Below, one piece after another: positions 25,540 through 62,063 of a DNA stretch of 64,000 bases (position 1 is the stretch's first letter; each line of letters opens with the position of its first letter). The notes under the pieces were generated by a model, which saw only the letters and a program-made list of their open reading frames with translations, did no database searches and had not been told where the DNA came from. The DNA comes from Chiloscyllium plagiosum. Taxonomy: Eukaryota. The stretch spans positions 21,342,418 through 21,406,417 of the forward strand of contig NC_057719.1 in NCBI RefSeq assembly GCF_004010195.1, given 5' to 3'. Both the position numbers and the translations under genes were made by a program.

Positions 25540-27350
25540 CAATACTATCATGGCACATATCCCACTCAGTCACAAGTCAGTTCTCTATCTCAATGCCACA
25601 CTTTGCAGCAGTATTGTAGTGTTGCTGCCAGGACATTTTTTTCAGACAGGGATTCACAACCACTTCATGGTTTTGACCAGGCTGCATCTCAGGATCTCGC
25701 TTTCACTTTCTTAGTTCTCATTCACTTTACACTTACTTGGATGCTCACAGCATCTATGCCTTGCTGCACTTTGAACCCCCACCATAGCTTTCAGCGCTGC
25801 TGTCTTGTTTTACAGCTTAACACCACCTTCTCAAGGTAACTTGTGATGGGCAACAAATCCTGGCCCAGCCAGTGATGCCATCATCTCATGAATGAATATT
25901 TTCTAAAATTTAGCACAGACGCAAATCCATGCAGCTTATCACATTTGTCAGCAATCATCAGTCACGGAGGTGGACATATTGTTTTATGGTGCTGTGTTAT
26001 ATCAATCTCATACCTGCACAATGTAACAGCATTTTATGCGGAAAGCACAACATATGCTTCAATCAACGGCCATTTCTCAAAGTCTGTGGGGAGCAGTTCT
26101 CATTCAGGCTCAGGAAGATAGCCTTCATTCAGTGGTTGTCAACACAGGGAAGTCAAGGTCTTCATCCAATAGCAGCCCTAGTGTTTAGATACTGGCAGTT
26201 GGCCACTTGCGGGTAGTCAGAGTCATGGAGTTCAAATCAACACAGACTGAGGAGTGAGCCACAGTCAGTCCTGCAGGTCCACTGCAGCAAGTCCAGGAAG
26301 TCACATTAAATCAGTCAGGAAACTACACAGAGATCAGTCAGGGGTCTGTCAGTCATCAGTCAGGATTGTCCATCCAAGTCTGTCCTGGGGATCAGTTTAA
26401 TAAAAATTAAAGTGGTTTAACAGTGCCCCGTTGCTGTGGTAAAGAAGTTGGGGAAGTCATCATGATGTTTGGAGACTGCTCCCTGCAATGTAGGGGATAA
26501 TAATAGTGATGGGGAAAAACTCATCGCATATCAGGGGAAAATGATAATGCTTTGATGAACATTGGTCACTGTGGTATGGTGGGTGGGGATTAGTCAGGTA
26601 GACAATGATGGTCAAAATCACTCTGTGGACAGTGCAGCCCAATGGTTGGCATGATTAATTTGTGTAAGCTTACAAGCTCTATTCTACCCTGGGTAATGTG
26701 CACCCACAGCTCACAGACTGGACAGGCTACATCTCTGGCTTGTTGGCTTGCTTTCCTAGCCACTCACTCATTTTAAGCCTCCCTGGATGCTCGCAGCATC
26801 CCTGTCTTGCCTTGACTTTCTGCACCTTGCTCCTCAGCCAGAGTTATCAGTCTTGCAAAACTGCTACCTTGCTTTGCCACTTCACACTGACACAAAACCA
26901 GAAAGCATATCATGGTTGTCAGCAGCTCCTTGTCAATTCAAGCAGAATAGATTTTGCTCAGGGGTTTCTGGCACAGTAGGTCAAGAGCAGCCTCCCATAT
27001 CAATTGAGGGGCTTGATCATAGTCAGTCAGCCGCATGGGGTTGTCAGAATTGGGGTCTTCTCCTCATAAGGAGTGTGGAGCAGAATGTTGAGCAGCCCAC
27101 TATTTATCTTGACTTTTTGTGGCCTCTTGTGGGATATTTTCCTCCTGGAATGATAGAGACTGGGAGGTATTAAGGGTCACCTGCATGAGTGGATGAGAGC
27201 GAGTGAAGAAAGATGTTGCAGGCAATAATGAAAGTGGTAGACCACTATGCTTGGTGAAATGTGGGCACAGTAGCAGAGAGTGTGAGCGAGAGGAATTGGA
27301 AAAAAGATCATCGCAGTTACACTGATGAAGTGAAGAAGTCATTGACATGC
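25540..27350. mobile_element. Possible second Harbinger fossil (transposase remnants on -, Myb/SANT-like remnant on +)
   Basis: Minus strand near 25590-25670 gives KWL*IPV and QQHYNTAA..IE; near 26070-26115 FLSLNENC. Plus strand near 27262-27350 gives W..VAESVSER...KK. All heavily decayed. Confidence 0.4.
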
Positions 27351-28680: not shown

Positions 28681-30372
28681 TGTTATGGGGGCAAGAACAG
28701 AGGCAGATGGGCATGTAATTTCATATTCTGTCCTTGTGTCGGTTAGTGTCCTGCATCCAGGCCATTTTCCGAGAAGTAGAGTTGGGGACAGCAGCGTTAC
28801 CTGCCTTCAAGTGAAAATTATCCAAATAGAATTTGTTTAAGACCAACGTTCAGAGGTGAACTGGAATTTTTCAACCAATCTGCAGTCTCTTGACTGTCGG
28901 AGAAGCAAGACATGTGCCATAGTGGCCAATCGAGAGGAAAGCTCTTTGTGTGGCCTGTTTGGCAAGAGTGGTGGCCTGGCAGTGTAGCCATTTTTCTTCA
29001 TTCAAACATCTTTAAAATTGTTGGGTGGTTGCTTCGAGATGTAAGTGCCCTCTTTACCTGCAATAACAGCTGCACTCTATTCATGATGAAGATCTCCCTA
29101 TCGAATCCTCAAGAGGCTGGCCATTGTGGACATTGCATGCACTTTGGGAAATCACTGTTCGATGACTGGTCTCAAACATAATGTGGCAGGAATCAGAACC
29201 CTATGGGGGCATCACAACTCACAGCTATGTGTCTGGGCTGCGAATGGCATCAGAAAAGTTCTTGTTGAAATGTTTAAGTCCTGATTAAAACCTCTGTTAA
29301 TGGAATGCACAGATATTGCAGATGAATACGTTAATTACTTGTACATCAATAATAATGTCTAGGCTTTGTACTGAGAGGCTGACAATTTGAATTCATTTTT
29401 ATCCCCCAGAATTACTTTGTAACCATCTTAAACTTTTAATTGATTGTCCAGTAACCAATTATTCAATTTAAACTATACTGTGGATCCACACTGTCCAACT
29501 AGCCCAGGGAAATCGTATCAATCAAGCCTCTGATTTTAAGGTTATTAAAATAAATAAATAGAAATATAAGTAAATAAATAAGAGTCTGCCTGCGATTTTC
29601 CAATATGCGTCATCAGTGAACAAGGTTTCCCAAAAACAGCTCGATTATTGATAAGTGCACTAAATGTACCCAACATGCCAGAGAAAGACAAAAATGCAAG
29701 ATGCTGTAGTTTATACCGAACTGTCTCTCCATTAGATTAAAGGTTGATCTAATTCACAAGCAGTAATGAAACAAATAGATATAACCTAAATGTTTATACT
29801 TGACCAGTATCAACTGAAATCCTGATTTACTATTTATGGTTCCTTCATTTTGTAGCTGTGTTGTCTTTAATTCCTGTGGGTCAATAAAGCCTAGGACTGT
29901 TTGATGAAATTTTTAATTAGAAGCTTGAAGCAATTCAAGTGAGGTCCCATCACATACCTGATTTCATTACACATGTAGTAGTGATAGTGACAATGCAATT
30001 AAAAAGTCAAGAGCTTTTCTCCACATGCTACATCAAAGTACTACAAATGCATTCCCCAGCTTATGAAGTCTTGCATAATTTCTAAAGCTATGTAATTTTA
30101 TTAATGTCTATCTCAGTCCTGTTCCAACTCATCGAGTAGATTTCACTTATTTTACTGTCATAATCTGACACAAAGATATATACTTTGGAGCTTCTTTCAG
30201 ACTCAATGCCTGTTACTTACTTTATGTAGATCAGTGATTTCAGTAGGCAAAGGATATGTCCAGATGCATGAACAGTAATGTGGCTGTGAGGAATGTCATT
30301 ATGATCCCAACGAGATGAACTACAGTGGTTCAAGGCAGCTCACCATCTCCTTCTCAAGGACAACTAGGAATG

Positions 30373-30619: not shown

Positions 30620-33600
30620 GAATGGGCAATAGATGTTGGCCAGCCAGTGATGCCTACAGCCCAGGAATAAATAAAAGAGACCAATACATTAAAAGAAAAA
30701 ATCTCAAAAGACACCAATGGGTTATTTTGGGATTTGTTTCAGACAAGTACATCCCTCTCATTAAGATGCCATTAATAAACACATATTTCAAGCAATTATA
30801 TCTTTCCTTTCTTTATTGTTTACATAATTCTATTCATATAATTCTTGACTGTATTTCCCCAACTGCGATAAATCAAATCAGAAACTGAGCATTTTACTTT
30901 ACTGATTTGGGTGACCCAAGGCAGCACTTTCATTTATTTGTGCCTGTTAAGTACATTCTTCAATTTTTGAAGATATCCACAAGGGATTTATTTAGGTTCC
31001 TCTGGATCTGCTATGAGTTCAGTAGCTGATTCATGGAAACCCTGGACAAACAATGGATTCCCAGTCAACGATCTTCCCCTGATTTTACAGTAATTTATTC
31101 AGAAGCACCCCAAGGGACATTCACACCATTATTTATATGCAACAACTAACACTGTCAAGCCCATGTGAATAATGTATTTTTATGACTATTGTCCAAGGAT
31201 GAGTTAGAGTCTAAATTACCAACACTGTGACAGTCATCACGAATCCAGCACTTATCTTCACTTTCCAGCACCTTCCTGCTACTCTTAAAACTAAACTGTG
31301 TCAGCTTTAATAATACTTTCCAGCCCTTCCAGGAGTGTGAACAGATGACATAAACCTGATTTAAAAGAACTCTCATTTGAAAGTGTCCGTTATAATATTG
31401 CTACCAAATGGTATGTAATTTTGTGCTGTGAATTTACAAGAACCTGTCTAATTTGCGCATACTGATCATTGTCCAATAAAATATAGTTTCTGTTTACTCT
31501 ACGAGTACATTTCATAACTGTAATTCAACACTGAATGTCCAATAGCTGACTCAGTCGGGATGATTCCATAATCTGGTTCTTGGCAAGTGGAAAAGGGAAA
31601 TTACAAAACAGTAGACGTGGCATTCTATTCCTTAAGATGAATGTATAGAAAGTCAAACATTGCATACTGTTGTTTCAGATGCATGTATTGTGAGAAATGC
31701 TGCTGCTACGCACAGTCATGGTTCAAACTTGAAATCCTGAAAAGGTCACTGTTACATATGGAGATTACTATTTTCAAAACCGGGCAACATTTTTCTTTTA
31801 TGCATCTTCATTATATTTCACTTTAAGAAAGGCTTACTTTAATATAGAAAATAATACACACTGTATATAAATTTAGATCTATATTTATATGCAATCGCAA
31901 ACATCATTATACAATGATCTCTACATATGTATATACTGATATAGAATATTTATATGAAGCATTTAATTTCATTTTTTTTGAAAACCAGGAGGAAGGACAG
32001 AAAACCTTCTCTCAGAACCCTGATTACAAAAAAACTCCAGCCTGAAAAATACCTACCACTTTAATTTAGAAGCAGACCTCCCTTCCACCATAGAAATGGG
32101 ATTAAAACAGATTTCAAGCATATCAAAATGTCATTGACTCCAGAAAATAGGACATGGTCACGACTGCATCATGCCACAGACTGAACAACATTTCTGGCAA
32201 TAGATATTAGTCATATCAAGAGACTCTACAAATGTTTACAGTTTTAACTAAAACAAGCAAATCATAAACATGTGGAAGATGAATACAGCTTGTATTTACC
32301 AATTCAATATCTATAAGTACATTTTGCATCATGTCCTGGAAACAAATGTCACTTATTACCAAAAATTATGGAAAACAAACTCCATGGAACAGTGGTAACA
32401 GTATCTAATATATTTCTAGTACTTATTCATTCAGGCACCTATTTTTATTCACAATTATACTTTGAATTAGACAGCTGACTGTGATGGGAATCTTGTCTGA
32501 AGAATTCAAGCTGCAAGTGGCTTTCGGAGATCAAGTTGATGTTTTCCCTTTTTCTTTGCACATTCCTGCTGAGGATTAAAGCAAGCTTGTTATTAAATGT
32601 AATCAATTTGAAAGCCTGCTGTTTGGAATATGTAGGAGCAGAGAAAATGGGCCCTGATAGAAGGAGCTAAACTCCTGGATGGGACTTACATTTAATGCTG
32701 GTTTTTCCTATTTTATTTGAGCAAAAACCTTCAATTCATTAGATAAAGTTGTTTCAGGCAGAAAGATGTATATACAAATAAATCTTGATTCCATAACAAA
32801 ATTCATCCAAGTCCTCATCAAATGCAGATTTACTGTCGTTTTCTTGATAAGTGCCTGCTTGTCATTTTAATGTAGACCTAATGTAGACCCAATCCCATAG
32901 GACTTATCACCATTTGCAATGCTTCAGATAGGAAAGCTAAATATTAATTTAAGCTAAACTTGGATAATGTCTAAGCTGCAGCCATCAAGTAAAAAGTAAA
33001 CTTGTCTCCAAAAAGATCTCCAAAACGTTTCCTATCATCATATCAAAAGAGTTACATATTTGACCAGGCGGTGGATTTCAACGTATCTACAATAGCAAGA
33101 CAGAGACTGGGAAATCGATGATGATTCTCCCATCTCCTTATTGTCCGTGGTTCCTCATGTCAGGAATGCAACGGAATTCTTAATGTGATTGAGGCTGAAA
33201 GGACAGATTAAAAAGCCTGGCATCATGTGGAGCAAAGCAGTTCTCATCCCGAGGAATCAATATTCTTCTTCTCTACAAATGATGTGTTTTTCTTGCACTA
33301 TACGTGATCTAAAAGATGCACTTCAGTAAATTGACTTCTTCCCTGGCTACTCGACTGCTAAAGAACAACAATGTCAAGGGACTGTCATTACCACAAGGTT
33401 CCCTCAAGTTACATAGTGACATGGCATTTTATTGCTTCTTGATTATTGCAAGGTTAAAGCCATGCAAATTCTTATCTAATGTAGGATCTTCATCATCACA
33501 AAACCTCAAGGAGGAAGACAACCATCATTTTTAGGGTAACTAGGGATGAATGATGGACATAGGCTAGAGGCAATGACTAAATCTTGAGAACACATGACAA

Positions 33601-38228: not shown

Positions 38229-38898
38229 ATTAAACATCTGTCTCTTTCCTCTTTAAATGTATTATTTTTCCCATCTTAGACCACACTCTGGTGCAGTCAA
38301 CTCACAGCTTCATGACCCTTTGAAAGAAGTAACTCATCCTCATCTCTGTAACTAAATCTGCCACCCCATAGCCAAACACTATCACCTCTTCTTTCAGATT
38401 GCCCACAAGGGGAACCATCCACTGTACATCTACTTTATGAATTCCCATAATCATCTTATTTATCTCAATTTGATCTCCTCTCATCCCTTTAACTCTCGCG
38501 CACATAGGCCTAAACTGCTCAATTTCACCTCATCAAACAAGCCTTTCATTTCTAAGCTCAGCCTACACTGCTCATTTTTTTCCTTATAAGACAAGCCTTT
38601 CCTCTCTGTTAACCATTTGTTGAATATATTATTGAGTTAATGTACACAACACACATAGATGGAAGGTAAAGAAAAATTATCACTCTTATAGAATCAGAGA
38701 ATGGTTGGATCACATAAGCAAGCACCTGTACCTTTCCTAAAGTGCCATGCCCAAATCCGGACACAACATTCCACTTGAGGATGAATCAGCATGTTATAAG
38801 GCTCAATATAACTGGGGCTTTTGCCCAAAACATTGATTTTCCTGCTCTTCGGATGTTGTCTGACCTGCTGTGTTTTTCCAGTACTACTCTAATCTTGA

Positions 38899-40031
38899 GG
38901 AGAAAGTGAGGTCTGCAGATGCTGGAGATCAGAGCTGGAAATGTGTTGCTGGAAAAGCGCAGCAGGTCCGGCAACATCCAGGGAACAGGAGAATCGACGT
39001 TTCGGGCATAAGTCCAGGGAACAGGAGAATCGACGTTTCGGGCATAAGCCCTTTTTCAGGAATGAGGAAAGTTTGGCTAAGATAAAAGGTAGGGAGGAGG
39101 GACTTGGGGGAGGGGCATCGGAAATGTGATAGGTGGAAAGAGGGCAAGGTGAGGGTGATAGGTCAGACTGGGGTGGGGGCGGAGGTGTGGGCGCAAGTCT
39201 TGCACCTCCTGCGGTTGCAGGGGAAGGTGNNNNNNNNNNNNNNNNNNNNNNNNNNNNNNNNNNNNNNNNNNNNNNNNNNNNNNNNNNNNNNNNNNNNNNN
39301 NNNNNNNNNNNNNNNNNNNNNNNNNNNNNNNNNNNNNNNNNNNNNNNNNNNNNNNNNNNNNNNNNNNNNNNNNNNNNNNNNNNNNNNNNNNNNNNNNNNN
39401 NNNNNNNNNNNNNNNNNNNNNNNNNNNNNNNNNNNNNNNNNNNNNNNNNNNNNNNNNNNNNNNNNNNNNNNNNNNNNNNNNNNNNNNNNNNNNNNNNNNN
39501 NNNNNNNNNNNNNNNNNNNNNNNNNNNNNNNNNNNNNNNNNNNNNNNNNNNNNNNNNNNNNNNNNNNNNNNNNNNNNNNNNNNNNNNNNNNNNNNNNNNN
39601 NNNNNNNNNNNNNNNNNNNNNNNNNNNNNNNNNNNNNNNNNNNNNNNNNNNNNNNNNNNNNNNNNNNNNNNNNNNNNNNNNNNNNNNNNNNNNNNNNNNN
39701 NNNNNNNNNNNNNNNNNNNNNNNNNNNNNNNNNNNNNNNNNNNNNNNNNNNNNNNNNNNNNNNNNNNNNNNNNNNNNNNNNNNNNNNNNNNNNNNNNNNN
39801 NNNNNNNNNNNNNNNNNNNNNNNNNNNNNNNNNNNNTCCCGACCTCTCCGCCCCCACCCCCGTCTGACCTATCACCCTCACCTTGACCTCTTTCCACCTA
39901 TCACATTTCCGACACCCCTCCCCCAAGTCCCTCCTCCCTACCTTTTATCTTAGCCTGCTGGACAAACTTTCCTCATTCCTGAAGAAGGGCTTATGCCCGA
40001 AACGTCGATTCTCCTGTTCCCTGGATGCGGC
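38899..40031 (-). mobile_element. Young PLE family A with inverted pLTRs, nested in an older family A' pLTR (38814-38898 + 40047-40081)
   Basis: 15-bp TSD CTACTCTAATCTTGA (38884-38898, 40032-40046). Minus strand gives TFPCNRRRCKTCAHT (Cys-rich linker). Intact hammerhead at 39975-40010 (+). N-gap at 39230-39836. Confidence 0.9.
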
Positions 40032-40278: not shown

Positions 40279-43195
40279 TGGGGAGGCAATGGTCTAGTGT
40301 TATTGTCCTAGACAATTAATCTTGAAACTCAGTTAATGTTTCTGTTTAAAAACGCACCATAGCAGATGGTGGAATTTGAATTCGATGAAAAAAATTTGGA
40401 ATTAAAAATGTACTGACGACTACGAAACTATTATTGACTGTTGGAAAACCCTTCTGGTTCATTGATGTCCTTCAGGGAAGAAAATTGGCCATCCTCACCT
40501 AGTCTGGCCTACATGTGACTCCAGGCCCACAACAATGTGGTTGACTCTCAACTGCCCTGTTAAATGGTCTAGGATGCCATTCAGTTTTACCAATCGGTAA
40601 AGTCTCAATCCAATGATTGAATCAAAGGATCACCTGGCATCAATCAGAAGAGAAAACACCAGAAACAGAAATCCTCCATGTTAACATATGGTGGTTAGTG
40701 CCAGAATTGGGAGAGCTGTCTCACAGACTAGTGAAGGAACAGCTTGACATAGTCAAACTCATGGAATCATACCTTACCGACAATGCTCCAGACACCAACT
40801 ACATGGGCTCCTGCTAGAAATGTCGATTTTCCTTCTCCTCTGATGCTGCCTGACCTGCCGTGCTTTTTCAGTGCCACTCTAAACAAAGTCACACGCAGGC
40901 ATATCCCCAATCAACCATTACCATCAAGTCAGGGGATCAATCCTGGTTCAGTGGTGAATGCAGGGGGACACAGGAAAAGCAGCACCAGGCATACCTGAAG
41001 ATGAGGTGTCAACCTGGTGAAGCCACTAAGCAGGACTACTTGCATGCCAACGAGCATAAGCAGCAAGTGATAGAGAGAGCTAAGTGATTCCACAACCAGT
41101 GCATCAAATGTAATGCGCCCTGCCACATTCAGTCCTGAATGGTGGTGAAGAATTAAACACGTCACTGGAGGATGAGACTCCACAAATCTCCCCATCCTCA
41201 ATGATAGACGAGCCCAGCTCATCAGTGCAAAAGATAAGGCTGAAGCTAATCTTTTGCACTGATGATCCATCTCAGCCTCCTGCAATGTTCCCCAGCATTA
41301 CAGATACCAGTCTTTAGCCAATTCGATTCACTCCAAATGATACCAAGAAATGGTTGGAGACACTGGATACTGCAAAGATTATGGACCCTGACAAAATCCC
41401 AGCCATCGTACTGAAGTCTTGTGCTCCAGAAAGATGCCACTCCCCTAGCCAAGCTCTTCCAGTACAGTTAAAATCTACCTGGCAATGTGGAAGATTGTAC
41501 ATAAAAAAGAGCACAAATGCAATCCTGCCAATCACCACCCCCTCAGCCTTCTCTCAAACATCAGTAAAGGAATGCAAGGTTCATCAACAGTGTGATCAAG
41601 CAATACCTGCTCAGCAATAACCTGCTCAGTGACGCTCAGTTGGAGTTCGACCAGGGCCACTCAGTTTCTGACCTCATTACAGCCTTGGTTCAAACATGGA
41701 CAAAAGAGCTGAACTCCAGTCATGAATTGGGAGTGACAGCCCCTTGACATCAAGGCTGCATTCGACTGAGTGTGGCTTCAAGGAGCCCTTGCAAATCTGG
41801 AATCAATGTATAACAGGGCAAATTCTTCCAGTGGTTCGAGTCATACCTGACACATAGGAAGATGATCATGGTTGCTTGAGGTCAGTCATCTCAGCTCCAG
41901 GTCATCTCTGTCGGAGTTCCTCAGGGTAGTGTTCTTGGCCCAACTATCTTCAACTGCTTCATCAATTACCTTCCCCCCATCATAAAGTCAGAACAAGCAC
42001 ATTTGCCAATGATTGCACAATGTTCAGCATCATTTACAACCTCACAGATACTGAAGCAGCCCATATTCAAATGCAACAAGATCTGGACAAAAACCATAGG
42101 ATCACTACAGTATGGAAGCAGGCCATTTGGCCCATTGAGTCCATACCGACCCTCACAGCCACCCAATCCCTACATTTCCCATGGCTAGTCCATCGAACGT
42201 ACACATCCCCGGGCACAATGGGTAATTTAGCATGGCAAATCCACCTAACCTGCACACCTTTGAACTGTGGGAGTTAATCGGGGACCTGAAGAAAATCCAC
42301 ACAGACACATGGAGAATGTGCAAATTCCACACAAACAGTCACCCAAGGCTGGAATTAAACCTGGGTCCTGATACTGTGAGGCAGCAGTGTTAACCACTGA
42401 GCCACCATGCCACACTTGTCAGGTGAGGGCTGACAAGTGGCAAGTAACATTTGTGCCACACAAATATCAGGCTATGACTATCACCAATTAGAGACATTCT
42501 AATACTGAGTCTTGACATTCAATGACATTACATCACTGAATTTCACGTATCAACATCTTGGGGTTGTCATTGACCAGAAAATCAACTGGACCCACCACAT
42601 AAGCACAGTGGCTACAAGAATAGGTCAGAGGCTAGGAATACAAGATGAGTAAATCATTGCTTTGCTGACCAAAGCCTGTCCACTATCTACAAGGCACAGA
42701 TCAGGAGTGTGATGGAATATTCCCTGGATGGGTGCAGCTCCAACAACACTCAAGAAGCTTGACACCATCTAGGACAAAGCATCCCGCTTGATTAGCACTA
42801 CATCCACAAGCATCCACACCCTTCACCACTGACACGCAGTAGCAGCGGTGTCCTCTATCAACAAGATGTACTGCATAAATTCACTAAAGATCCGCAGATT
42901 GTACCTTCCAAACCCAGTTCCATCTGGAAGGATAACGCCAGCAGATATATGGAATCACCACCACCCTCCAAGCCACTCACCATCCTGACTTGGAAATGTA
43001 TCATCATTCCTTCACTGTTTTTGGGTCAAAATCCTGGAATTCCCTCCCTAATGGCATTGTGGATCAACCCACAGCAGGTGGACTGCAAAGGTTCAAGAAG
43101 GCAGCTCACCACCACCTTCTCAAGGACAACTAGGTACAGGCAATAAATGCTGGCCAGCTGGCGACACCCACATCCCACAAATGAAGAAAAGAAAA
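40279..43195 (+). mobile_element. CR1/L2-group LINE with a tRNA-like 5' head and no ORF1 (copy 1)
   Basis: A-box-like TGGTCTAGTGT at 40290. APE start LHVNIWWLVPELGELSHRLVKEQLDIVKLMESYL near 40675. RT motifs LDIKAAFD (~41744), GVPQGSVLGPTIF (~41913) and FANDCT (~42002). Tail ends CCCACATCCCACAAATGAAG. Interrupted by a PLE pLTR (~40803-40880) and an HE1 SINE. Confidence 0.85.
42094..42412 (-). mobile_element. HE1-type V-SINE nested in a LINE
   Basis: Reverse complement of the HE1 head, V-domain and tail. Confidence 0.88.
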
Positions 43196-46100
43196 ACATG
43201 CATTGTCATGTTGTTGTCAGTTAAGTAATGGTAACAAAAGAGGTATCTTTGGTCAAGTTGTTCACTTTCATTTTGACTGGATTTGCCAAATACAGCTCCT
43301 TGGCTATATTCACTGAACTGTGGCAATGTACTTTTTTTTGGGAGGGGTAGGCGAGGGAGGCAGTGCTAAGGAGGCAGGCAGGTCTACCTCAGCCAGAATT
43401 GTTAGACATCTAAGCCAACTGAGTTATCTGCAACAACGCCATTGAACCAATGCCTTCCCCTCTCACCCCTCAATCTCACACTAAATCACTATAATATTAC
43501 AAAAGAGAAAATGAAACAAATCCAGTGCAAAATCTGTGAAAGGAAAGGGGCATTTATTCAATCCAAGTGAGAAGTGAGGAAAACCTAAAAAGCCCACTTC
43601 TTACGTATTCTGCACTTCCAAGTATTTTACTGGAGTCCCTTTTTAAAATACAAGTTTAAATTTTCGTCATGTTAATGCTGTGAAATGTTACAGATATAAT
43701 TAGGCAGTGTTTATTAGTGCAGTTAATTGCTTTCTTAGGAAAGCAGACATCATAATGAGATAGTGATTATGAAGAAGTTGGAATTAAACCAGAATTTGAG
43801 ATCAGCGGGGTTACAGACCTAAAAGATATAATTTCAAGGTATAATCAGGTATACTTCTTGATGCTTAAAAAAAAATGTGTACATCCGATGACTCACTACT
43901 TGAGTTCCTCTGTTCACTGAAAAGAAATGGCACAAGCAGCCTGGTGGGCTATTTGTGTTAGTTCTGTAGCCCGGGAGATGGCACATCTCCAACATTGTCT
44001 TGTGGATATTGATTTGTGTCGTTAAGATGTCAAGACTTTGACAACCCTAGCAGTCTCTCTGATGGCTTTTGTCATCTTTCAATTGGCTCGCCGAGCATGA
44101 ACCATTTCCTTTGAGCTATGGACATATGGGCTCTATCAAGAGATCCAGAGAGCAATGTCAGCATCGGATCCCATTTAAACATTACTTTGGCTGAAGGTCA
44201 CTGTCTTGTATTTCCCAAGACTATGACTAGCATTAAAATTTATAGTAAACACATTCAGTCCCTCTGCCTTTCTTATCCTTTACTCCTCTACCTTTCATTT
44301 TACCTATATTATTAATAATAAGTAATATTTTCTAAGTGCGTACTCATAGCTTGCAAGCTGAAACCTGCTGATGATTTAGGACTTTTAATTAAAACTCATT
44401 TGTTTCAAGCACTCTTAACTAATGGCATACTCCATAAGTGTGAAGTTTATTAATTGTAATTTTTTAAAAAATGAAAGCATAGAAATCTGTGATAATTAAA
44501 GATACACTGGAAATATACTGATGCACAAATATCTGTGGTGAAAGGGTTAAGCTATTTTAAATGTGATATTGAATGATGCAGTGTAATAATGATCTGTTGT
44601 CGTAATGCATCATTGTTCCCCTTACACTGCGCTCCAGGCATAAATCCCATATAAAAATCTAATTTTCTCTTTTAAATGTTGTCTCCTCTATTGAAAATTA
44701 ATCTGGATAATGACATTCTGAAAAAGTGACAGCACATCTCTGGACACTGAAGTGTATCCAATGTGCCATTAAAAAGCCATTAATGGTTTATTTACAGGAA
44801 TTAAAAAATGAATTGCAAAAAACATTGCTGGTTTGCTGCTGGTACAATTAGGAAAGTGACCTTGAACTATAGTGCAAAAATGATGTAAGACTCTAACAAC
44901 AATTAGGAATCATAAATAAAAATAGAAAGCGTTGTAAATATGCAGCAAGTCTGTCAGCAGCTGAAAAGAGAAAATGAGAAGATAATATTTTGGGTGTCTT
45001 CATAAGAACTGACTAGAATTAGTAATCACAAAGGCACTTTTTAGGTTAAGTGCTAATTATTGTATCATTTACGATTCGTGCAACACATTAACAAAATGGC
45101 AATGGTGTACATTATTGAAGTTCATTGCTTTTTTTGAATATTATTTTATTTAAAGGGAAATAAGTCAATTATGATGCTTCGATTAGAGTGACCCTTTAAG
45201 ATACCTGAAACAGAAAGTGAGCCACTTAACAATTTAACTGATTAAATATTTGATAATCTGTGGAAAGAGAATATATTTTTTGAAATGGTTGAGCAGCAAG
45301 CTTAAACCTATATTAGCTAATATGTTCATGACAATTGCCTTCTGGTGAAATAGTGCGCCCTACTTGATGGGAAAAGATTCTTGAACATCATCTGGAGCTA
45401 AGAGGAACAGCAAAATTCAACGCACAACAGAAAGTTCCTGTGATGAGGCACCAATTATTATTTTCTACAGCGCAGATTGTTACTCTGAACAATCTGCTGA
45501 TACTATCCTTATCCTGACTTCTAACAGTCATGTCCCACTTCAATCCAAGGGAGTGGTTTCACTTTCCTGGCTCTTTCCTGGGAGCAAGCAGGTCCAGCAG
45601 AGAGTGAGAAACTAGCAGCTCGCAGGTCCTCCAGCAGGCTGACAGGAGGTTTGAATTCCAGCTGGAGGGAGGACTGAAATTCTGATGCCTTTTGTGTGGG
45701 AATCAAAAGGGTTTTGGGAGAGGAAAAGCAAGTTGTCCAGGAAAGTACAACAGACTCAGCAGCTAAATGAAATGGCGCTGATCTCGTGATCTACCAATTT
45801 GTTGGGTCGATAGAGCTGATGGGGTTCTCTAGTCCTCAGAATTCCAATTGGAGAGTGTTAAATTTCAAATGCAGAATAAAAAATGAGATGCACAGCCTCA
45901 CTGTAACATGTAAAGCATTAACATAAAACCCACTACCAGGAGTGTGTTGGTTACTCACCAATGGTTCTGTGAATAAATGCAGAAAATACTGGAGAAACCC
46001 AGCAGGTCTGACAGTATTTGTGGATACAGAAACAAAGCTAACATTTTGAATCCAGTGCAGCTATCCTTTGGAACTGAAATGGATTGGAATTCTTTTACAT

Positions 46101-46691
46101 ACTTTTGACAAAGCCAAACAAAATATATTTTCCAACCCCTTTAAGTTCTGAAGAACTGCACTGATACTGGAATCTGTTCTTGACTTTCTGTGCAGAGATC
46201 CTTTAACTGAAAGTTATCTCCCTTGACTTGGCTGAGGACTGCTGACAATCATGACAAGATTCCTGGCTTTGTGTCTGTGCTAAATGGCAAGGCAGTAGAG
46301 CAGTGCCACAAGCATAGTATCTCTAGCTGAGGGGCAAAGAGCAAAAATGCAAGACAGGAATGCTGAATGCATCCTGGTAAGCTCAAAGTGAGTGAGCATT
46401 AAGAGAACAAAGAAACCCGAAGAGCAATCTATTTCTGTCCACAAGCTGGGTGTATAATGCCTTTGCTGTAGCATTACAGTGACAGTTGCTATTGCAAACT
46501 GAGATGCAGCATTTAAGTGTAGAAATGTCCTGTAAGTGAGCCCAGACAGAATCTCACCTCAAGGCCTGGAACTTAGTTAAAAGATATAACGAGTTGTTTC
46601 AGGTATTGAGATAGGGTGCACTGGGAATTCTTGTGTGATTCTGTCACATTTCTTACCATAGCACACATCATTCAGGCCTCTGTAAGATTCT

Positions 46692-46831
46692 AATTAAAAT
46701 ACAAAAGAACTGCAGATGCTGGAAATCAGAAACAAAAACAGAAATTGCTCAGCAGGTCTGGCAGCTTCTGTGAAGAGAAATCAGAGTTAAAGTTTCGGAT
46801 CCGATGACCTTTCCTAGGTCGACCTTTCCTT
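46692..46831 (-). mobile_element. Solo PLE family D pLTR
   Basis: AAAAGAACTGCAGATGCTGGAAATCAGAAACAAAAACAGAAATTGC...; degenerate hammerhead near 46785-46815; 9-bp repeat TAAGATTCT (46683-46691, 46832-46840). Confidence 0.75.
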
Positions 46832-47696
46832 TAAGATTCTGTCCATTGCCTCAATAGATGACTGCACCATGAAGAAAACTCACTTGAACTGTGTCCACAT
46901 TGCAAACTCTTTTAAGCAGAACTGTTTCAATAGCAATGACACAAATGAGTTTTGTGATGCCTGAATTTCAGTGCCAGTGTGATGCCAGGTATGTAGACCA
47001 TATTTCCTGATGACTAGTGGAGATCTACAGCTATTTACAACAGGGAGATTGGTGACCACATTCAATCCACACCCAAGCTTGAAAACCTCTGAGCATAGTG
47101 TGCAACATTAGATGTGATTCTGCCAATGAACAATATTGATGATGTAATCCTGATTGGGCGGGAATTATACTAACAACTGATTTCAGATCATCAGTTAGGT
47201 TTGCAGGATGGCTCATTTAAGCTTGCTAAAAAAAACTGCATCTATTCATATGAAGGGCTCTGATCTTTGCAAACAGAAAGAACATGTCTAGGCATTGTGC
47301 CTTTGTCAACTCAGCAAATGATCAGGGACAATTTCCTCATGCTTTCATGCCTTAAACAATCAAACTCATCTATTCAAACAATTACCACCCTCTTCTCATG
47401 CAATATAAATTGTTGGTCGCTTAAAATGTTTCTTACAGTTCTTTCTATAGCTGAATTTGTGAGTGCAAGATGAAAAGCCTCAACAGCACATTTTTTTTTC
47501 AGCAACAATCAAGGTTAATGGAAAATTCCTGCTTTTCTCTCAGTGTTCCTTAATTTTTGTGTTTGGACAAGCGCAACACTTGAATTATGCATTCAGCATA
47601 AGCAGTTAGTCTGTCAGAATTTACTAAAAGAAGGGATGCACTTTCTTTTATCCAATGCTTTATGTTGAGTAAAATCAGGCCACTTCAAATTCTATC

Positions 47697-47975
47697 TATT
47701 AGATTAGATTACTTACAGTGTGGAAACAGGCCCTTCAGCCCAACGAGTCCACACGGACCCTCCGTAAAGCAACCCACCCAGACCCAATCCTCTACACTTA
47801 ACGCTACGGGCAATTCAGCATCGCCAATTCACCTAACCTGCACATTTTTGGACATGGGAGGAAACCCATGCAGACACAAGGAGAATGTGCAAACTCCACA
47901 CAGACAGTTACCTGATGGGAATTGAACCCAGGTCTCTGCTGCTGTGAGGCAGCAGTGCTAACCACTGTGCCACCC
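47697..47975 (-). mobile_element. HE1-type V-SINE
   Basis: Reverse complement of HE1, with a (TCTAA)n tail. Confidence 0.9.
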
Positions 47976-48389
47976 ATCTATTAGCATCTGGGGTCTACAG
48001 TAAAAGGGAGAGAACTTAATATGTGGTGTGCACTAGAACAGTAAATAATGAAGAACAGTAGATCTCAGACTCAATCTGGAAGTGCTCAGTTCTTGAGGTC
48101 AGGTTTGAGCAATTATGATTCAAAATTGTGAACTGCAAGGTCAGGATCCACTATTGTATAGTCTTAGCAAAGCACTATTTCTGAGGTTTGTAATTAAGAA
48201 TGCGGTTACTGCAATTCTAATTATCTTTCTCCTATGTTTACACTGAGCCCTGATTGTTACGACACAGTCTATAGGATGATATTCTTATCTCATAGTTCAA
48301 TAGGATGCCCAATTGGCGAAAATATTTTGAATGAAAAGTACTCTTATAAGGAAGCCATTTAGGGATTTGGACTATAGTTCCCAAAGAGA

Positions 48390-50930
48390 ATTCTGAGGTA
48401 ATAGTAATGTTACATAACTAATAATTCAGAGTCTAGGCTAGTACTCCAGAAATATAAGATCAAATCCCACCAGGGGAGTTGGGGGGAATTTCAATTCAAT
48501 TTGTTAATAAATCTGAAATTCAAAGCTTAGTTTTAGTAATGGTAAATAAGATGCAATCAAATATTGGCTCACTGATTTCTGACAAGTGACTCCAGATTCA
48601 CTATGTCACTGACTCTGAACTGCTCCCTGAACTGATCGAGAAAGCTGCTCTGTTTTGCCAAACTGCTACAAAAGTTAAAGGAACAAAATCAGACACTGGG
48701 CACAGCTCATTGTGCTCCATTAATCCTGCGAAAACCTTCTCACTAATATCAGGAGAATCCTCCCACAGATTTGTCAAGCAACAACCTGATGTGGTCATAC
48801 ACACTGAATCTCACTGTATAGTCAATGTTCCAGGCACTACCATGGCTATCGCTGAGTATGTCTTATCCTGCAGCAAAGGCAGATAGAATGACTTCATAGA
48901 ATTCAGTTGGAATGGAGTTCTTCTGAGCATCTTTAACATTGACACTGGACTGTATGAAATTTCATGGCCAACAAAAACTGCTGATTTATTCCCTGATGAA
49001 TCAGTACTCCACTATATTGAACACCATTGGAAAGAAACACTGAGCAACAGAATCCATACAATATATTCTGGGAGGAGTACTTCACTATCAAACCAGGAGT
49101 GCCTCAGCCACTCTCTCACTGACCAAGCTGACTACGTTTTAAAGATAATAGCTACTCACCTGAGTCTACATCAGGAATTTGAGGGGACAGAGTAGGAAAT
49201 TATTATGTGTCTTCATCCTTATCAAGCTACCTCCTGCAGTTTTGGTAGGAGTGACTACCATACAGACCTTGGGGGATAAAATCTCATTTTCATCTTCTCA
49301 TCATAGAGATTTAAGTCTTTCATGTACTGGGACACCATTATCAGGTCACTTGGGATAGATTCAGAACAGATCTATCAGTTCAAACTAGGCAACCATGAGA
49401 CACTGTGGAAAATCATCAGCAGCAGAACTGCATTCAACACTAATATGGAATTGCTGGCCAAGCATATCTACCAGTGGACCACTATGAAGCAAGCAATCAA
49501 GGCAAATTCAATGACAAGCACAAAGATGCATGCCAAGGGTACAACCTGGCATACCTGGTGAAGTTATGCCAGAGGCTGAATAGTAAAAGCACAATGCAAT
49601 GGACGAAGACAACCATCTCACATCCAATAGATCTGATCTAAGCTGTTCAATCCTGACACACCAGTTATGATTGGTAGTGAGCAATTAAATAACTCACAGG
49701 AGGAGAAGGCTCCACAATTATCCCATGCCTTGAGGCTAAGGGATCACAACACATTAGTGCAAAAAACAAGGCTGAAGCATATGAAAGCATCTTCAACTAT
49801 TAGAAGCAGGTGGGTGATCTATCGCTGAATTGCCCAACATCACCAATGTTAGTCTTCAGACAATTTGATTCATTCCACATCCAAGAAATATCTGAAGGCA
49901 TTGGTTACTGTGAAGGCTATGGGCCCTAACAAAATTCCAGCAATAGTAATGGACAATTGTGCTCCAGAAATGATCATACATCAAGCCAAGCTATTGAAGT
50001 ACAGATCCAATGTTAGTACTTTGTGGCAAAGTGGAAAATTACACAGCTCCATCCTGTACACACAAGTATAACAAATTCTTACCAGACGACTATTGCATCA
50101 TCAGTCTCCTGACAATCACTAGCTAAGTAATGGAGATATCATCAACAGTGCTAGCAAGGAGCAGATGTACAGCAATAACTTCTCATTGTCACTGGGTTTG
50201 CAAAATCCACTCCAGCTCCCAACTTCATTACATACTTGATCCAAATATGGACAAAAGAGCTGAACAGAAGAGTGGAAGTGAGAGTGACTGCTCTTGACAT
50301 CAAGGCTGCATTTAACTCAACCTGGCATCAAGAAACCTGAGCAGAATTAGAGTCAATAGGAATCGGGGGGGAACTCCTTGCTGGTTAGAGTCATACATAG
50401 TTGACAGGAAGATAGTTGCAGTTGTTGGAGAATACTCATGCCAGTCCAAAGGCAACACTGTTGGAGTTCCTCAGGGTCGCATCATCGGTCCAAACATTTT
50501 CAACTGCTTCATAAATGAACTTTGCTCTATCATAACATCAGAAGTGGGCAAGTTCACCAATAATAGCACAATGTTCAGCACCATTCATGACTCTTCAGGA
50601 CGGAATCAGTCCCTGTCCAAGTACAGTTGCATGCAGAATTTGGACCTGAATAACACCCAGTTTTAGAGTAATAAGTGTCAAATAACATTCATACTGCATA
50701 AGTACCAGTTAATAACCATCACTAATACGAGAGAATCTATCATCCCTAGATATTTAATGGCATTACCATTGCTGAATCCCAAACTACCAACATTTTAGGG
50801 TTGCCATTGACCAGAAACTGAATTTGTCTATTCATATATAAATATTGCAGTTCCAAGAACAGATGAGAGGATGGAGAATCTGTGGCAAGCAACCCACCTC
50901 CTAATTCCTCAGAGTCTTTCTGCCATCTAA
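48390..50930 (+). mobile_element. Older copy of the tRNA-headed, ORF1-less LINE (copy 2)
   Basis: B-box-like GATCAAATCC at 48458. The body matches 40360-40570. APE remnant HRFVKQQPDVVIHTES near 48764; LDIKAAFN near 50293; GVPQG near 50463. Confidence 0.8.
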
Positions 50931-51500
50931 ATATATTGGAGAAGATACCAATAGCAATGCTTTTGTTAGATCCTCCAAATCAAGACGCATACAGAGTAAA
51001 CTTCTCCCAAACCAAATCCAAGACACTAATCACGAAAAACTATATCTGTTAGACCGAATATGTTATTTTCTCATGCCAAATGCTAGACTCCAGAAACAAT
51101 TGCTCTACCTGAAGCTGAATCATAGCAGGGTACTGCTAGGGGTTAGCAAAAGTGCTTTGGAAGTTTGGAAATGTTCAAAGCATCTAAAGAGATGTCAGGC
51201 ATCCCCACCTTTAGATGGAAGTATTTGGCCTGTGAGCAAACAAAATGGAAAAGCTTCATTTGGAAAGGCATCAAACAGATCAAAAGACTTTGTTGCAAAG
51301 ATGAAGAGGCAACGTCAAGACATAAAAAGGGTGTGCACAAACCGTCAAAAAATTCATCTACCTTATGTTTCGATGCCTTCTTCCCCATCTGCGACAGGGT
51401 CTGCAGATCATGCATTGAACCTTGCAGCCATTGCAGAACCCATCAAACTCATTTGAAAGCAAGTCATCCTGGAACCCAAGAGGCTATCTAAGGAGAGGGA
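50930..51500 (+). mobile_element. RTE (BovB-like) LINE 3' fragment
   Basis: MPNARLQKQLLYLKL, WKYLACEQTKWKSFIWKG and PICDRVCRSCIEPCSHCRTH resemble the RTE C-terminus and terminal C2H2 motif. Confidence 0.75.
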
Positions 51501-54429: not shown

Positions 54430-55572
54430 ATAAGACCATAAGACATAGGAGAGAAAGTAAGGCCATTCAGCCCATCGGGTCCATCCGCTATTCAGTCAAG
54501 GCTAATGGCCATTTCAACACCATTTACCCACACTCTCCCTGCAGCCCTTAATTCCTTGCGAGATCAAGAATTTATCAATCTGCCTTGAAGACATTAAATG
54601 TCCTGACCTCCACTGCACTCCGTGGCAATGAATTCCACAGGCCCACCACTCTCTGGCCAAAGAAATGTTTCCTCATTTCCATTCTAAATTGACCCCCTCT
54701 AATTTTAAGCCTGTGCCCATGGGTCCTAGTATTCCCACCTAACGGAAACAAATTCCCAGTGTCCTACCTTTCGAAGCCATGCATTATCTTGTAAGTTTCT
54801 ATTAGATCTCCCCTCAACATTCTAACCTCTATTGAATACAATCCCAGGATCCTCAGCCGTTCATCGTATGTTAGGTCTACCATAGATCATCTTCCAGAGA
54901 TCATCTGTGTGAATCTCCGCTGGACACGCTCCAATGCCAGTACGTCCTTTCTGAGGTATGGGCCCAGTATTGGATACAGTATTCTAAATGGGGCCTAACC
55001 AGAGCTTTATAAAGTCTCAGTAGCACATCGCTGCTATTATATTCCAACACTTTTGAGATAAATGGCAACATTACATTTGTTTTCCTAATCACAGACTCAA
55101 CCTGCAAGTTAACCTTTACAGAATCCTGGACTAGCACTCCCAAATCCCTTTGTACTTTGGCTTTATGAATTTTTTCACCGTTTAGAAAATAGTCCATGCC
55201 TGTATTCTTATTTCCAAAGTGCAAGACCTCACATTTGCTCACATTGAATTTCATCAGCCATTTTTTGGATCACTGGCCAAAACTGTCTAAATCTTTCTGC
55301 TGCCTCCCCACCTCCTCAGAACTATCTGCCTGTCCAGCTAACTTTGTATCATCTGCAAACTTCGCCAGAATGCCCCCAGTCCCCTCATCCAGATCATTAA
55401 TATATAAAGTGAAAAGCTGCGGCCCCAACATTGAATCCTGCGGGACACCACTTGTCACTAGCTGCCATTCCGAAAAAGAACCTTTTATCCAACTGTCTGC
55501 CTTATGTCAGACAGCCAATCCTCAATCCATGCCAGTAGCTCAGCTTGAACACCATGGGCCCTCATCTTACTT
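54430..55572 (-). mobile_element. CR1 LINE 3' fragment (second family)
   Basis: SGVPQDSMLGPQLFTLYINDL, KFADDTK, MKFNVSKCEVLHFG and RPHLEYCIQYW. Confidence 0.9.
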
Positions 55573-60554: not shown

Positions 60555-62063
60555 AAAATGTGTTGCTGGAGAAGCGCAGCAGGTCAGGCAGCATCCAAGG
60601 AACAGGAGAATCGATGTTTCGGGCATAAGCCCTTCTTCAGGAATGAGGAAAGTGTGTCCAGCAGGCTAAGATAAAAGGTAGGGAGGAGGGACTTGGGGGA
60701 GGGGCGTTGGAAATGCAATAGGTGAGGGAGGTCAAGGTGAGGGTGATAGGCCAGAGTGGGGTGGGGGCGGAGAGGTCAGGAAGAAGATTGCAGGTTAGGA
60801 AGGCAGTGCTNNNNNNNNNNNNNNNNNNNNNNNNNNNNNNNNNNNNNNNNNNNNNNNNNNNNNNNNNNNNNNNNNNNNNNNNNNNNNNNNNNNNNNNNNN
60901 NNNNNNNNNNNNNNNNNNNNNNNNNNNNNNNNNNNNNNNNNNNNNNNNNNNNNNNNNNNNNNNNNNNNNNNNNNNNNNNNNNNNNNNNNNNNNNNNNNNN
61001 NNNNNNNNNNNNNNNNNNNNNNNNNNNNNNNNNNNNNNNNNNNNNNNNNNNNNNNNNNNNNNNNNNNNNNNNNNNNNNNNNNNNNNNNNNNNNNNNNNNN
61101 NNNNNNNNNNNNNNNNNNNNNNNNNNNNNNNNNNNNNNNNNNNNNNNNNNNNNNNNNNNNNNNNNNNNNNNNNNNNNNNNNNNNNNNNNNNNNNNNNNNN
61201 NNNNNNNNNNNNNNNNNNNNNNNNNNNNNNNNNNNNNNNNNNNNNNNNNNNNNNNNNNNNNNNNNNNNNNNNNNNNNNNNNNNNNNNNNNNNNNNNNNNN
61301 NNNNNNNNNNNNNNNNNNNNNNNNNNNNNNNNNNNNNNNNNNNNNNNNNNNNNNNNNNNNNNNNNNNNNNNNNNNNNNNNNNNNNNNNNNNNNNNNNNNN
61401 NNNNNNNNNNNNNNNNNNNNNNNNNNNNNNNNNNNNNNNNNNNNNNNNNNNNNNNNNNNNNNNNNNNNNNNNNNNNNNNNNNNNNNNNNNNNNNNNNNNN
61501 NNNNNNNNNNNNNNNNNNNNNNNNNNNNNNNNNNNNNNNNNNNNNNNNNNNNNNNNNNNNNNNNNNNNNNNNNNNNNNNNNNNNNNNNNNNNNNNNNNNN
61601 NNNNNNNNNNNNNNNNNNNNNNNNNNNNNNNNNNNNNNNNNNNNNNNNNNNNNNNNNNNNNNNNNNNNNNNNNNNNNNNNNNNNNNNNNNNNNNNNNNNN
61701 NNNNNNNNNNNNNNNNNNNNNNNNNNNNNNNNNNNNNNNNNNNNNNNNNNNNNNNNNNNNNNNNNNNNNNNNNNNNNNNNNNNNNNNCTGCAGATGCTGG
61801 AGATCAGAGCTGAAAATGTGTTGCTGGAAAAGCGCAGCAGGTCAGGCAGCATCCAAGGAACAGGAGAATCGACGTTTCGGGCATAAGCCCTTCTTCAGGA
61901 TACCTTTTATCTTAGCCTGCTGGACACACTTTCCTCATTCCTGAAGAAGGGCTTATGCCTGAAACGTTGATTCTCCTGTTCCTTGGATGCTGCCTGACCT
62001 GCTGCGCTTTTCCAGCAACACATTTTCAGCTCTGATCTCCAGCATCTGCAGTCCTCACTTTCT
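60555..62063 (-). mobile_element. Young composite PLE family A: pLTR - gap - direct pLTR - inverted pLTR
   Basis: pLTRs at 60555-60810 (-), 61788-61900 (-) and 61901-62063 (+). Three hammerhead motifs. 17-bp flanking repeat CCTCTGAGAGTGAGTTG (60538-60554, 62064-62080). Confidence 0.92.

Follow-up and report, generated by a model that had tools for sequence, protein, structure and literature searches.

The textbook division assigns coding capacity and Pol II transcription to LINEs, while SINEs are non-coding and transcribed by Pol III. The 64,000-nt stretch of the Chiloscyllium plagiosum genome analysed here (the window) contains two LINE copies beginning with a tRNA-like head, which raises the question of whether a coding LINE may be read from a tRNA promoter. 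If true, this would break the above division and provide a natural 3.3-kb Pol III mRNA. A translated Pol III transcript of such a size lies far beyond the normal use of this polymerase; a Pol III mRNA was reportedly described by Gunnery and Mathews in 1995. The best explanation, which on sequence grounds we hold with slightly more confidence than doubt, is a coding Zenon element of sharks and rays that carries a tRNA-SINE head, is read by Pol III and serves as a source of SINEs.

Two LINE copies in the window

Both copies lie on the plus strand, and the positions given for them in the initial annotation were confirmed. Copy 1 starts with the tRNA-Thr-derived head (40280..40367), in which the A box is intact (40290-40300) and a deletion near 40346 has damaged the B box. 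The body, or 5' leader, common to the short forms described below, occupies 40368..40612, with an A tract near 40388 and the junction points of the short forms mapped at 40561 and 40586. The site of the out-of-frame AUG and the 35-codon upstream frame of the family lies at 40613..40698, the decayed single APE-RT frame at 40671..43133 (stop at 43131-43133), and a short 3' UTR with an A-rich tail, also common to the short forms, at 43134..43196. By deletion, copy 1 lacks family positions ca. 556-1239, in place of which a foreign piece of ca. 100 nt is found (40798..40897, no strand assigned), and its RT part contains an inserted unrelated SINE in the minus orientation (42097..42426), which we take to be HE1/V-SINE-like. 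The foreign fragment represents a repeat of ca. 80 nt with many further matches in the window.

Copy 2 has an older, more decayed head (48390..48480) with the B box kept (48457-48467), so that the A box reported for copy 1 and the B box reported for copy 2 are indeed present. Its body (48481..48730), of an older type, falls into the group of short form B and resembles by eye the body of the Squalus-type Zenon in the accessible part of PMC13343379, while the decayed APE-RT frame (48731..50929; 66% identity to the family majority) ends at family position ca. 2760, the 3' end and the tail being missing. A search for close kin of its 5' end found none, only short matches of 67-88%.

The claim that both copies have one head in common is borne out by alignment of their 5' 600 nt (score 127, against a mean of 27.8 and a maximum of 40 in 200 shuffles) and of the heads alone (score 38, reached in 0 of 1000 shuffles). 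Between the two copies, identity is 66% in the RT parts; to the family majority, copy 1 is 84% and copy 2 is 66-67% identical. Judged by sequence, the copies differ in age or subfamily. The endonuclease motif follows the head start by 391 nt in copy 1 (40280 to 40671) and by ca. 345 nt in copy 2; for the family majority the distance is 428 nt.

The family and its 5' end

The family majority is 3277 nt (ca. 3.3 kb) long, devoid of ORF1 and ended by a poly-A tail. Among 48 loci anchored at the ORF start, 30 reach family position 40 or less, i.e., the head (28 of 46 without two duplicate pairs), and the remaining 18 are truncated, with no common upstream sequence and no other 5' end. The 5' boundary is sharp across 31 aligned rows. 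The head, the body, one APE-RT frame and the poly-A tail move together as one unit, and A-rich tails are found in six head-to-tail copies; a search for target site duplications in these old copies gave only 5-6-nt matches, at chance level. All the examined copies are decayed, with a mean identity of 84% to the majority. The head is part of the family architecture, as had been proposed, and not a SINE lying by chance beside a LINE. In the 48 loci examined, only the 35-codon upstream frame precedes APE-RT, which upholds the absence of a canonical ORF1. A hidden ORF1-bearing 5' end was considered and rejected, since no alternative 5' end occurs among these loci; chance adjacency of a SINE and a LINE was rejected as well.

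The head might also be target DNA, a LINE having inserted site-specifically into a SINE or landed beside one by chance. An A tract follows the head in the alignment, and short forms are commoner than the long one (774 vs. 54 exact junctions, a rough comparison, as the patterns differ), both of which fit such an origin. Against it, the poly-A of the six head-to-tail copies is not followed by another SINE tail, the LINE keeps positions 296-345, missing from short form A, and the head-LINE junction is identical across species in the visible published sequences. This origin is largely refuted and very improbable.

The family is abundant in sharks and rays. Matches to its 5' end in the genome amount to 5813 first-look candidates, short forms counted in, and because of this abundance its correct labelling affects both repeat and tRNA annotation in sharks.

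Relation to catalogued Zenon elements

By sequence, the family is an elasmobranch Zenon (CR1 group) already catalogued in the supplement of PMC13343379, the assignment being based on the first 400 nt, which match by eye, the length, the single APE+RT frame without ORF1 and the poly-A tail. The accessible part of that source lists RhiTyp_Zenon-1, CarCar_Zenon-1, ScyCan_Zenon-1, SquAca_Zenon-1 to -3 and HypSab_Zenon-1, which, like the family studied here, are ca. 3.3 kb long, ORF1-less and poly-A-tailed; the RhiTyp element has 3293 nt vs. 3277 nt here, with the first 400 nt nearly identical by eye. All seven shark and ray consensuses start with the head, as read by eye in the table, vs. none of the three from hagfish and coelacanth, which have T-runs within the visible 400 nt. 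The body motif occurs in exactly the seven shark and ray rows of the table's visible text. The family sequence, head included, thus stands in Supplementary Table 2, and the architecture is catalogued as a sequence, but its tRNA nature goes unmentioned in the main text as accessible, where tRNA, promoter, Pol III, polymerase and start codon have no mentions. The head, the avoidance of T-runs, the AUG problem and the short derivatives are likewise undescribed in that main text. The literature searched yielded no description of a tRNA-headed or Pol III Zenon, and the Squalomix preprint has no mention of Zenon, SINE or CR1. The loss of ORF1 had initially been regarded as unusual; this premise falls, as Zenon elements are described as universally ORF1-less in the accessible part of PMC13343379.

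A protein search with the endonuclease fragment gave no match at 1e-10, one with the RT fragment gave two proteins, and a follow-up search 697 relatives, the best of ca. 32% identity to the family protein. At the protein level, identity to the CR1 of this genome is 27%; with no ORF1 and such a distance, the family has neither the esterase ORF1 nor the close CR1 kinship of canonical vertebrate CR1.

Origin of the head

The family-majority head, in which the A and B boxes are clean, aligns with the tRNA-Thr(AGT) gene of this genome (0 of 2000 shuffles as good), with an insertion of ca. 19 nt in the variable region that disrupts the cloverleaf. Short form A also aligns with tRNA-Thr (0 of 2000 shuffles as good). 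On this sequence evidence the head is derived from tRNA-Thr. The earlier claim of a tRNA-derived head with both boxes stands for the family majority but not for copies 1 and 2 taken singly, with 125 and 167 of 2000 shuffles as good, respectively. ARAGORN finds no tRNA genes in the window, and an Rfam search with the heads of copy 1 and one further locus (L044) gave only chance matches. When 15-29 nt were removed from the majority head and the threshold lowered, ARAGORN called a tRNA in 68 of 240 trials, which is not counted as evidence; the calls printed were named Asn(att), because the loop is changed in the young subfamily. Folding z-scores (0.1 for the head, -1.2 to -1.8 for the body, -2.1 for the tail) lend no support to a special IRES-like fold in these parts.

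Coding frame and translation start

In the family majority no in-frame AUG is found 5' of the catalytic endonuclease motif. An out-of-frame AUG, conserved by eye in the published consensuses as far as visible, opens the frame of 35 codons, which runs into the first part of the endonuclease frame, with an overlap at 349-455. Once CpGs are restored, the majority shows an open frame of 643 codons; a break in its frame lies near 2215-2225, where the depth is 16.

The absence of an in-frame AUG would fit a SINE-LINE chimera whose own frame is not translated and which is moved in trans by another Zenon, headless and provided with a Pol II leader. Intact ORF2s are, moreover, rare in all species of the readable rows, ranging from 0/59 to 3/612, the latter in stingray, with 1/1419 in whale shark (accessible part of PMC13343379). 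Nevertheless, the 48 ORF-start loci contain no alternative 5' end, the frame opens as described upon CpG restoration, and the differences from the visible Squalus consensus just 3' of the motif are, by eye, synonymous in the enzyme frame, which makes the trans-carried chimera improbable.

Scarcity of T-runs and the polymerase

On the sense strand of the 3277-nt majority there are 8 T3+ runs vs. 23.8 expected (0 of 500 shuffles as low) and one T4+ run vs. 5.1 expected (P=0.03), situated on mixed columns. With the protein and codon usage fixed, T3+ runs are still scarce (6 vs. 12.1 expected, P=0.0035), while for T4 the difference is not significant (1 vs. 2.1, P=0.33; 0 vs. 1.4, P=0.21 after CpG restoration). 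For runs of A, C and G no significant deficit is seen. The controls were CR1 lineages, not headless Zenon: a CR1 of 3078 nt has 42 T3+ and 11 T4+ runs, and in raw copies T4 occurs at 0.9/kb vs. 3.3/kb in CR1, A4 being at 5.3/kb in both. The sense-strand T4 count, proposed in the initial annotation as a check, favours Pol III (0-1 in 3277 nt vs. 11 in 3078 nt of CR1). Metagenome scans found no headless relatives. Phe makes up 1.7% of the family protein, compared with a mean of 4.7% and a minimum of 3.1% in 114 homologues; low Tyr and Lys accompany it, so base composition accounts for part of this deficit. Poly-A single-cell reads and contigs compared with one locus (L033) include family-like reads with no site where many molecules begin; their sense bias is due to oligo-dT priming.

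HDV-like ribozymes serve as processing or translation signals in other ORF1-less LINEs, and the head, though integral, might act similarly through its tRNA-like fold. The coding RNA would then be made by Pol II, through host-gene read-through or by firing from the head or body, and T-poverty would reflect composition or RNA stability. The insignificance of the T4 scarcity under synonymous shuffling speaks for this, the missing in-frame AUG fits any cap-independent model, and moth Zenon works without a tRNA head or Pol III promoter according to the accessible part of PMC6740152. However, sharks and rays alike retain the A and B boxes although the cloverleaf is disrupted, and codon usage does not fully account for the shortage of T3+ runs, with no significant shortage of A, C or G runs. 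We regard transcription by Pol II as unlikely, if a serious competitor. As far as the head and the scarcity of T-runs indicate, the family is probably transcribed by Pol III.

Short derivatives

Two short forms of ca. 365-400 nt have the head, body and tail in common with the LINE: form A consists of LINE positions 1-295 joined to 3219-end, and form B of 1-320 joined to 3215-end, their distinct junctions having 774 and 33 exact matches, respectively. Over LINE 1-295, form A matches the LINE with 92% identity. In the form-B majority two T4+ runs occur, at columns of poor agreement. A branch with support of 99/97 separates copy 2 and seven of eight form-B rows from 43 LINE, 14 form-A and one form-B rows, in a tree whose bootstrap is unsettled and whose old copies lie on long branches. 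Since the junctions differ and each form groups with a different LINE generation, the short forms likely arose by internal deletion, at least twice; the junctions look like deletion products, in agreement with the derivation of SINEs from the LINE suggested earlier. The tRNA head with A and B boxes, characteristic of SINE2, is found in both long and short forms, but only the latter are short and non-coding, the long form being a 3.3-kb element with APE-RT. Like SIDEs of the Persaeus type, the short forms are built from the two ends, 5' and 3', of their partner LINE, but they do not share the SIDE absence of a small-RNA head or Pol III promoter. In a comparison bearing on the conserved-domain SINE superfamilies (Deu, V, CORE and Meta), the body motif had no match in two of the three MetaSINE supplement files.

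A model of the element and its relation to other systems

Under the Pol III reading, an ancestral Zenon, ORF1-less already, would have acquired a tRNA-SINE head in place of its own 5' end before sharks and rays diverged, a change for which template switching is the likely mechanism. TFIIIC and Pol III would transcribe from the head, and because there is no T4 signal, Pol III would run through the element and terminate in flanking DNA. The RNA, likely uncapped, would be translated in an uncommon way: initiation would most likely occur at the conserved out-of-frame AUG and be followed by a shift or reinitiation into the enzyme frame. The enzyme would copy the RNA from the predicted stem-loop of the family 3' UTR and the poly-A by target-primed reverse transcription, which is established for the class, and internal deletions would have yielded ready-made SINEs at least twice. 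Taken in full, as an autonomous coding retrotransposon relying on Pol III from end to end, having neither cap nor in-frame AUG and acting as a recurrent SINE factory since before the shark/ray split, the model is tentative, its chances being a little below even.

A close parallel is lepidopteran Zenon with its SIDE Persaeus (PMC6740152, accessible part), likewise ORF1-less and with a successful short derivative formed by internal deletion. However, according to that source Persaeus has neither homology to tRNA nor a Pol III promoter, whereas here both long and short forms have a promoter-like tRNA head. Bov-tA, CoeSINE4 and SINE2-1_ACar (PMC5786205, accessible part) consist, as the short forms do, of a head, a LINE-shared middle and a LINE 3' tail. 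In the model of that paper the head was joined to an already deleted LINE, while here the coding LINE itself is headed; if true, this reverses the order and would let a SINE arise in a single step. According to the same text, only RTE and Vingi contribute LINE 5' parts to bipartite SINEs. RTE-1_DAn and elements related to it, LINEs containing a tRNA-like sequence as here but belonging to the RTE clade, are named in this paper only among the literature searched. Helenus, Ajax and Cassandra TRIMp3 (PMC10886601, accessible part) are similar in being non-SINE retroelements with a small-RNA-derived Pol III promoter, but, unlike the LINE described here, they are non-coding LTR elements, and their autonomous partners, the author argues, must use Pol II.

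The two copies and the family 5' end

The genome that holds the window is 3.56 Gb in size. Two decayed Zenon LINEs of the window, copy 1 at 40280-43196 and copy 2 at about 48390-50929, have in common a head, a leader (the body) and coding DNA. The head and body attributed to both copies in the initial annotation were recovered by alignment of their 5' parts (score 127, at most 40 in 200 shuffles), and the A box is preserved in copy 1 and the B box in copy 2, as had been noted. The RT DNA of the two is 66% identical. An RT domain is found by Pfam in both (two of five fragments, E 3e-4 and 1e-3, under the curated cut-off), while other family copies show endonuclease and RT over that cut-off in two of seven fragments. 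In copy 1 a stretch of about 685 nt is missing from the endonuclease region and two foreign inserts are present; copy 2 is tailless. A 183-codon stop-free frame running from the broken end of copy 2 (50905-51456, +) may be due to chance.

With the first 482 nt of copy 1 as query, 5813 candidates were obtained, and of the 40 matches that were scored, the query itself included, 30 extend to query position 445 or beyond, inside the coding frame. Thirty loci aligned together with copy 2 begin at a sharp 5' edge, and their majority sequence has canonical A and B boxes. As these loci were selected by the head, a second sample was picked at the ORF start, comprising 48 loci (24 of 30 from one search and 24 of 25 from another). 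Thirty of them extend to family position 40 or lower, two reach the B-box part, ten the body and six the ORF only; their upstream flanks have no sequence in common, except for two duplicated pairs, and no ORF1-bearing 5' end occurs among the 48. The head is a real, family-wide feature; its fusion to ORF2 had been proposed as a family architecture rather than a chance arrangement, and this and the lack of ORF1 stood. A LINE inserted into or beside a SINE is rejected, there being no SINE remainder past the tail in six head-to-tail copies, and the long form as a passive chimera gives no account of the absence of any other 5' end. Direct repeats around these six copies were of 5-6 nt, a length expected by chance. 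The duplicated pairs, L074/L076 and L070/L079, have flanks 97-100% identical and are segmental duplicates or assembly redundancy.

The family majority, built from 22 copies and refined by pile-up, is 3277 nt long and consists of the head (1-97), the leader, a single APE-RT frame with one break where the depth is 16, a short 3' UTR and an A-rich tail; copies are on average 84% identical to it. In one copy (L029:1489-2772) an internal segment lies inverted after the head, resembling a twin-priming inversion. Lone 3' tails of the same family lie in the window at 10699-10747, 25813-25900 and 30313-30372 with 30625-30680, the last interrupted by an insertion of ca. 250 nt.

Origin of the head

The loop-plus-B-box pattern was found at five places, four of them called tRNA-Thr(AGT). 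The majority head aligns end to end with a tRNA-Thr(AGT) gene, with an insertion of ca. 19 nt in the variable region, and none of 2000 shuffles scores as high; the same holds for short form A, a SINE-like element described below. For copies 1 and 2 taken singly, 125 and 167 of 2000 shuffles reach the score and neither is recognized as tRNA-like, so the tRNA-like nature claimed for the head holds for the family majority and not for the single copies. The ultimate source of the head would be a SINE or a tRNA. A tRNA-Thr-like sequence at L171:1469-1542, with a decayed 5' half and no ARAGORN call, is a probable pseudogene.

T runs and transcription

Vertebrate Pol III terminates at about four or more T. 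The count of such runs on the sense strand, proposed earlier as a check, revealed a single T4+ run in the family majority (5.1 expected) and eight T3+ runs (23.8 expected), with no significant scarcity of A, C or G runs. The sole T4 sits on mixed columns and disappears in the CpG-restored version. With protein and codon usage fixed, the T3+ scarcity persists (P=0.0035) and that of T4+ runs is not significant (P=0.33). The protein itself has 1.7% Phe, against a minimum of 3.1% and a mean of 4.7% in 114 homologues, and is likewise low in Tyr and Lys. The controls were CR1 lineages, not Zenon without the head, no such relatives having been found in two metagenome scans. The CR1 majority of the same genome, similar in T content, has 42 T3+ and 11 T4+ runs in 3078 nt; raw copies contain 0.9 T4 per kb in Zenon versus 3.3 in CR1, with A4 at 5.3 in both. 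In more distant CR1-like DNA, 73 T4 were counted over 27 fragments, about 13.6 kb altogether, with some loci entering the count twice. Judged from sequence, these counts incline us towards a Pol III mechanism for the tRNA-headed Zenon, while Pol II transcription, with the head acting as a processing or translation signal, is a real rival that we consider rather unlikely. Family-like sequences occur among poly-A single-cell reads and show no common starting point, and their sense bias is explained by oligo-dT priming.

The control family is an abundant, younger CR1 of canonical type, seen in the window at 20700-22200 (-), 87-90% identical to other copies. Fragments of a further CR1-like lineage, ca. 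69% identical to it, are present at 54892-55488 (-) and 8465-9027 (-) and at L045, L037, L127 and L171.

Translation start

No in-frame AUG precedes the endonuclease motif in the family. An out-of-frame AUG at family position 349, kept in six of seven published consensuses (by eye), starts a 35-codon frame overlapping the endonuclease frame, both being open across the overlap; the length of the A-rich tract before this AUG in the published consensuses is not frame-preserving. The enzyme frame might be entered from the upstream one by frameshift or reinitiation. If anything of an ORF1 survives, this frame of 35 codons would be the sole candidate.

Short forms

Two SINE-like forms join head, body and tail, form A at 295|3219 (774 exact matches) and form B at 320|3215 (33); the LINE-type continuation gives 54, these counts coming from different patterns and not measuring copy number. 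Form A shares 92% identity with the first 295 nt of the LINE, and its LINE 5' part stops just short of the coding frame. A third junction, in a single old short form (L058:1341-1584, -), retains more of the LINE 3' coding end. A tree of the 5' region was made from 66 rows after exclusion of those with fewer than 200 aligned nt, which removed 6 of the 20 form-A and 12 of the 20 form-B rows. One of its branches (99/97) separates copy 2 and seven form-B rows from the younger LINEs, with which every one of the 14 form-A rows is placed; the bootstrap was unsettled and there are long branches. Since positions 296-320 are present in the young LINE and absent from form A, its 5' end is not derived from form A. 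The simplest reading of these sequences is that SINEs were repeatedly derived from the LINE, and the two junctions agree with the internal deletion suggested at the outset.

Relation to described elements

That this family exists and has no ORF1 was already known, PMC13343379 having reported shark and ray Zenon elements all devoid of ORF1 and all with a poly-A tail. In its Supplementary Table 2, where the initial 400 nt of every consensus were compared by eye, the seven elasmobranch rows all open with the same head and body, RhiTyp_Zenon-1 (3293 nt) being nearly identical to the family majority, and the three hagfish and coelacanth rows lack both. Its main text does not mention tRNA, promoter or polymerase, and no description of the tRNA nature of the Zenon 5' end was found in the literature, the search not extending to Repbase and Dfam. 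Thus, of the novelty left for checking, the family and its missing ORF1 were catalogued, and the tRNA-Thr head with its Pol III-like avoidance of T runs has apparently gone unremarked. Among related elements, moth Zenon and Persaeus (PMC6740152) have no tRNA head, unlike those of sharks and rays; non-coding LTR elements carry Pol III promoters (PMC10886601); Zenon is named as a tail donor of bivalve SINEs (PMC11481361, PMC10294476); and other SINEs are described in PMC5499810 and PMC4824008. No match was made between the Zenon body and named SINE domains.

Other features of the window

A very common repeat end of ca. 80 nt occurs at 38800-40030, with a 36-nt tandem at 38977-39048, and at about 20 other places; we take it to resemble the tail of a Penelope-like element. 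It borders each of the N runs at 3110-4081, 39230-39836 and 60811-61787.
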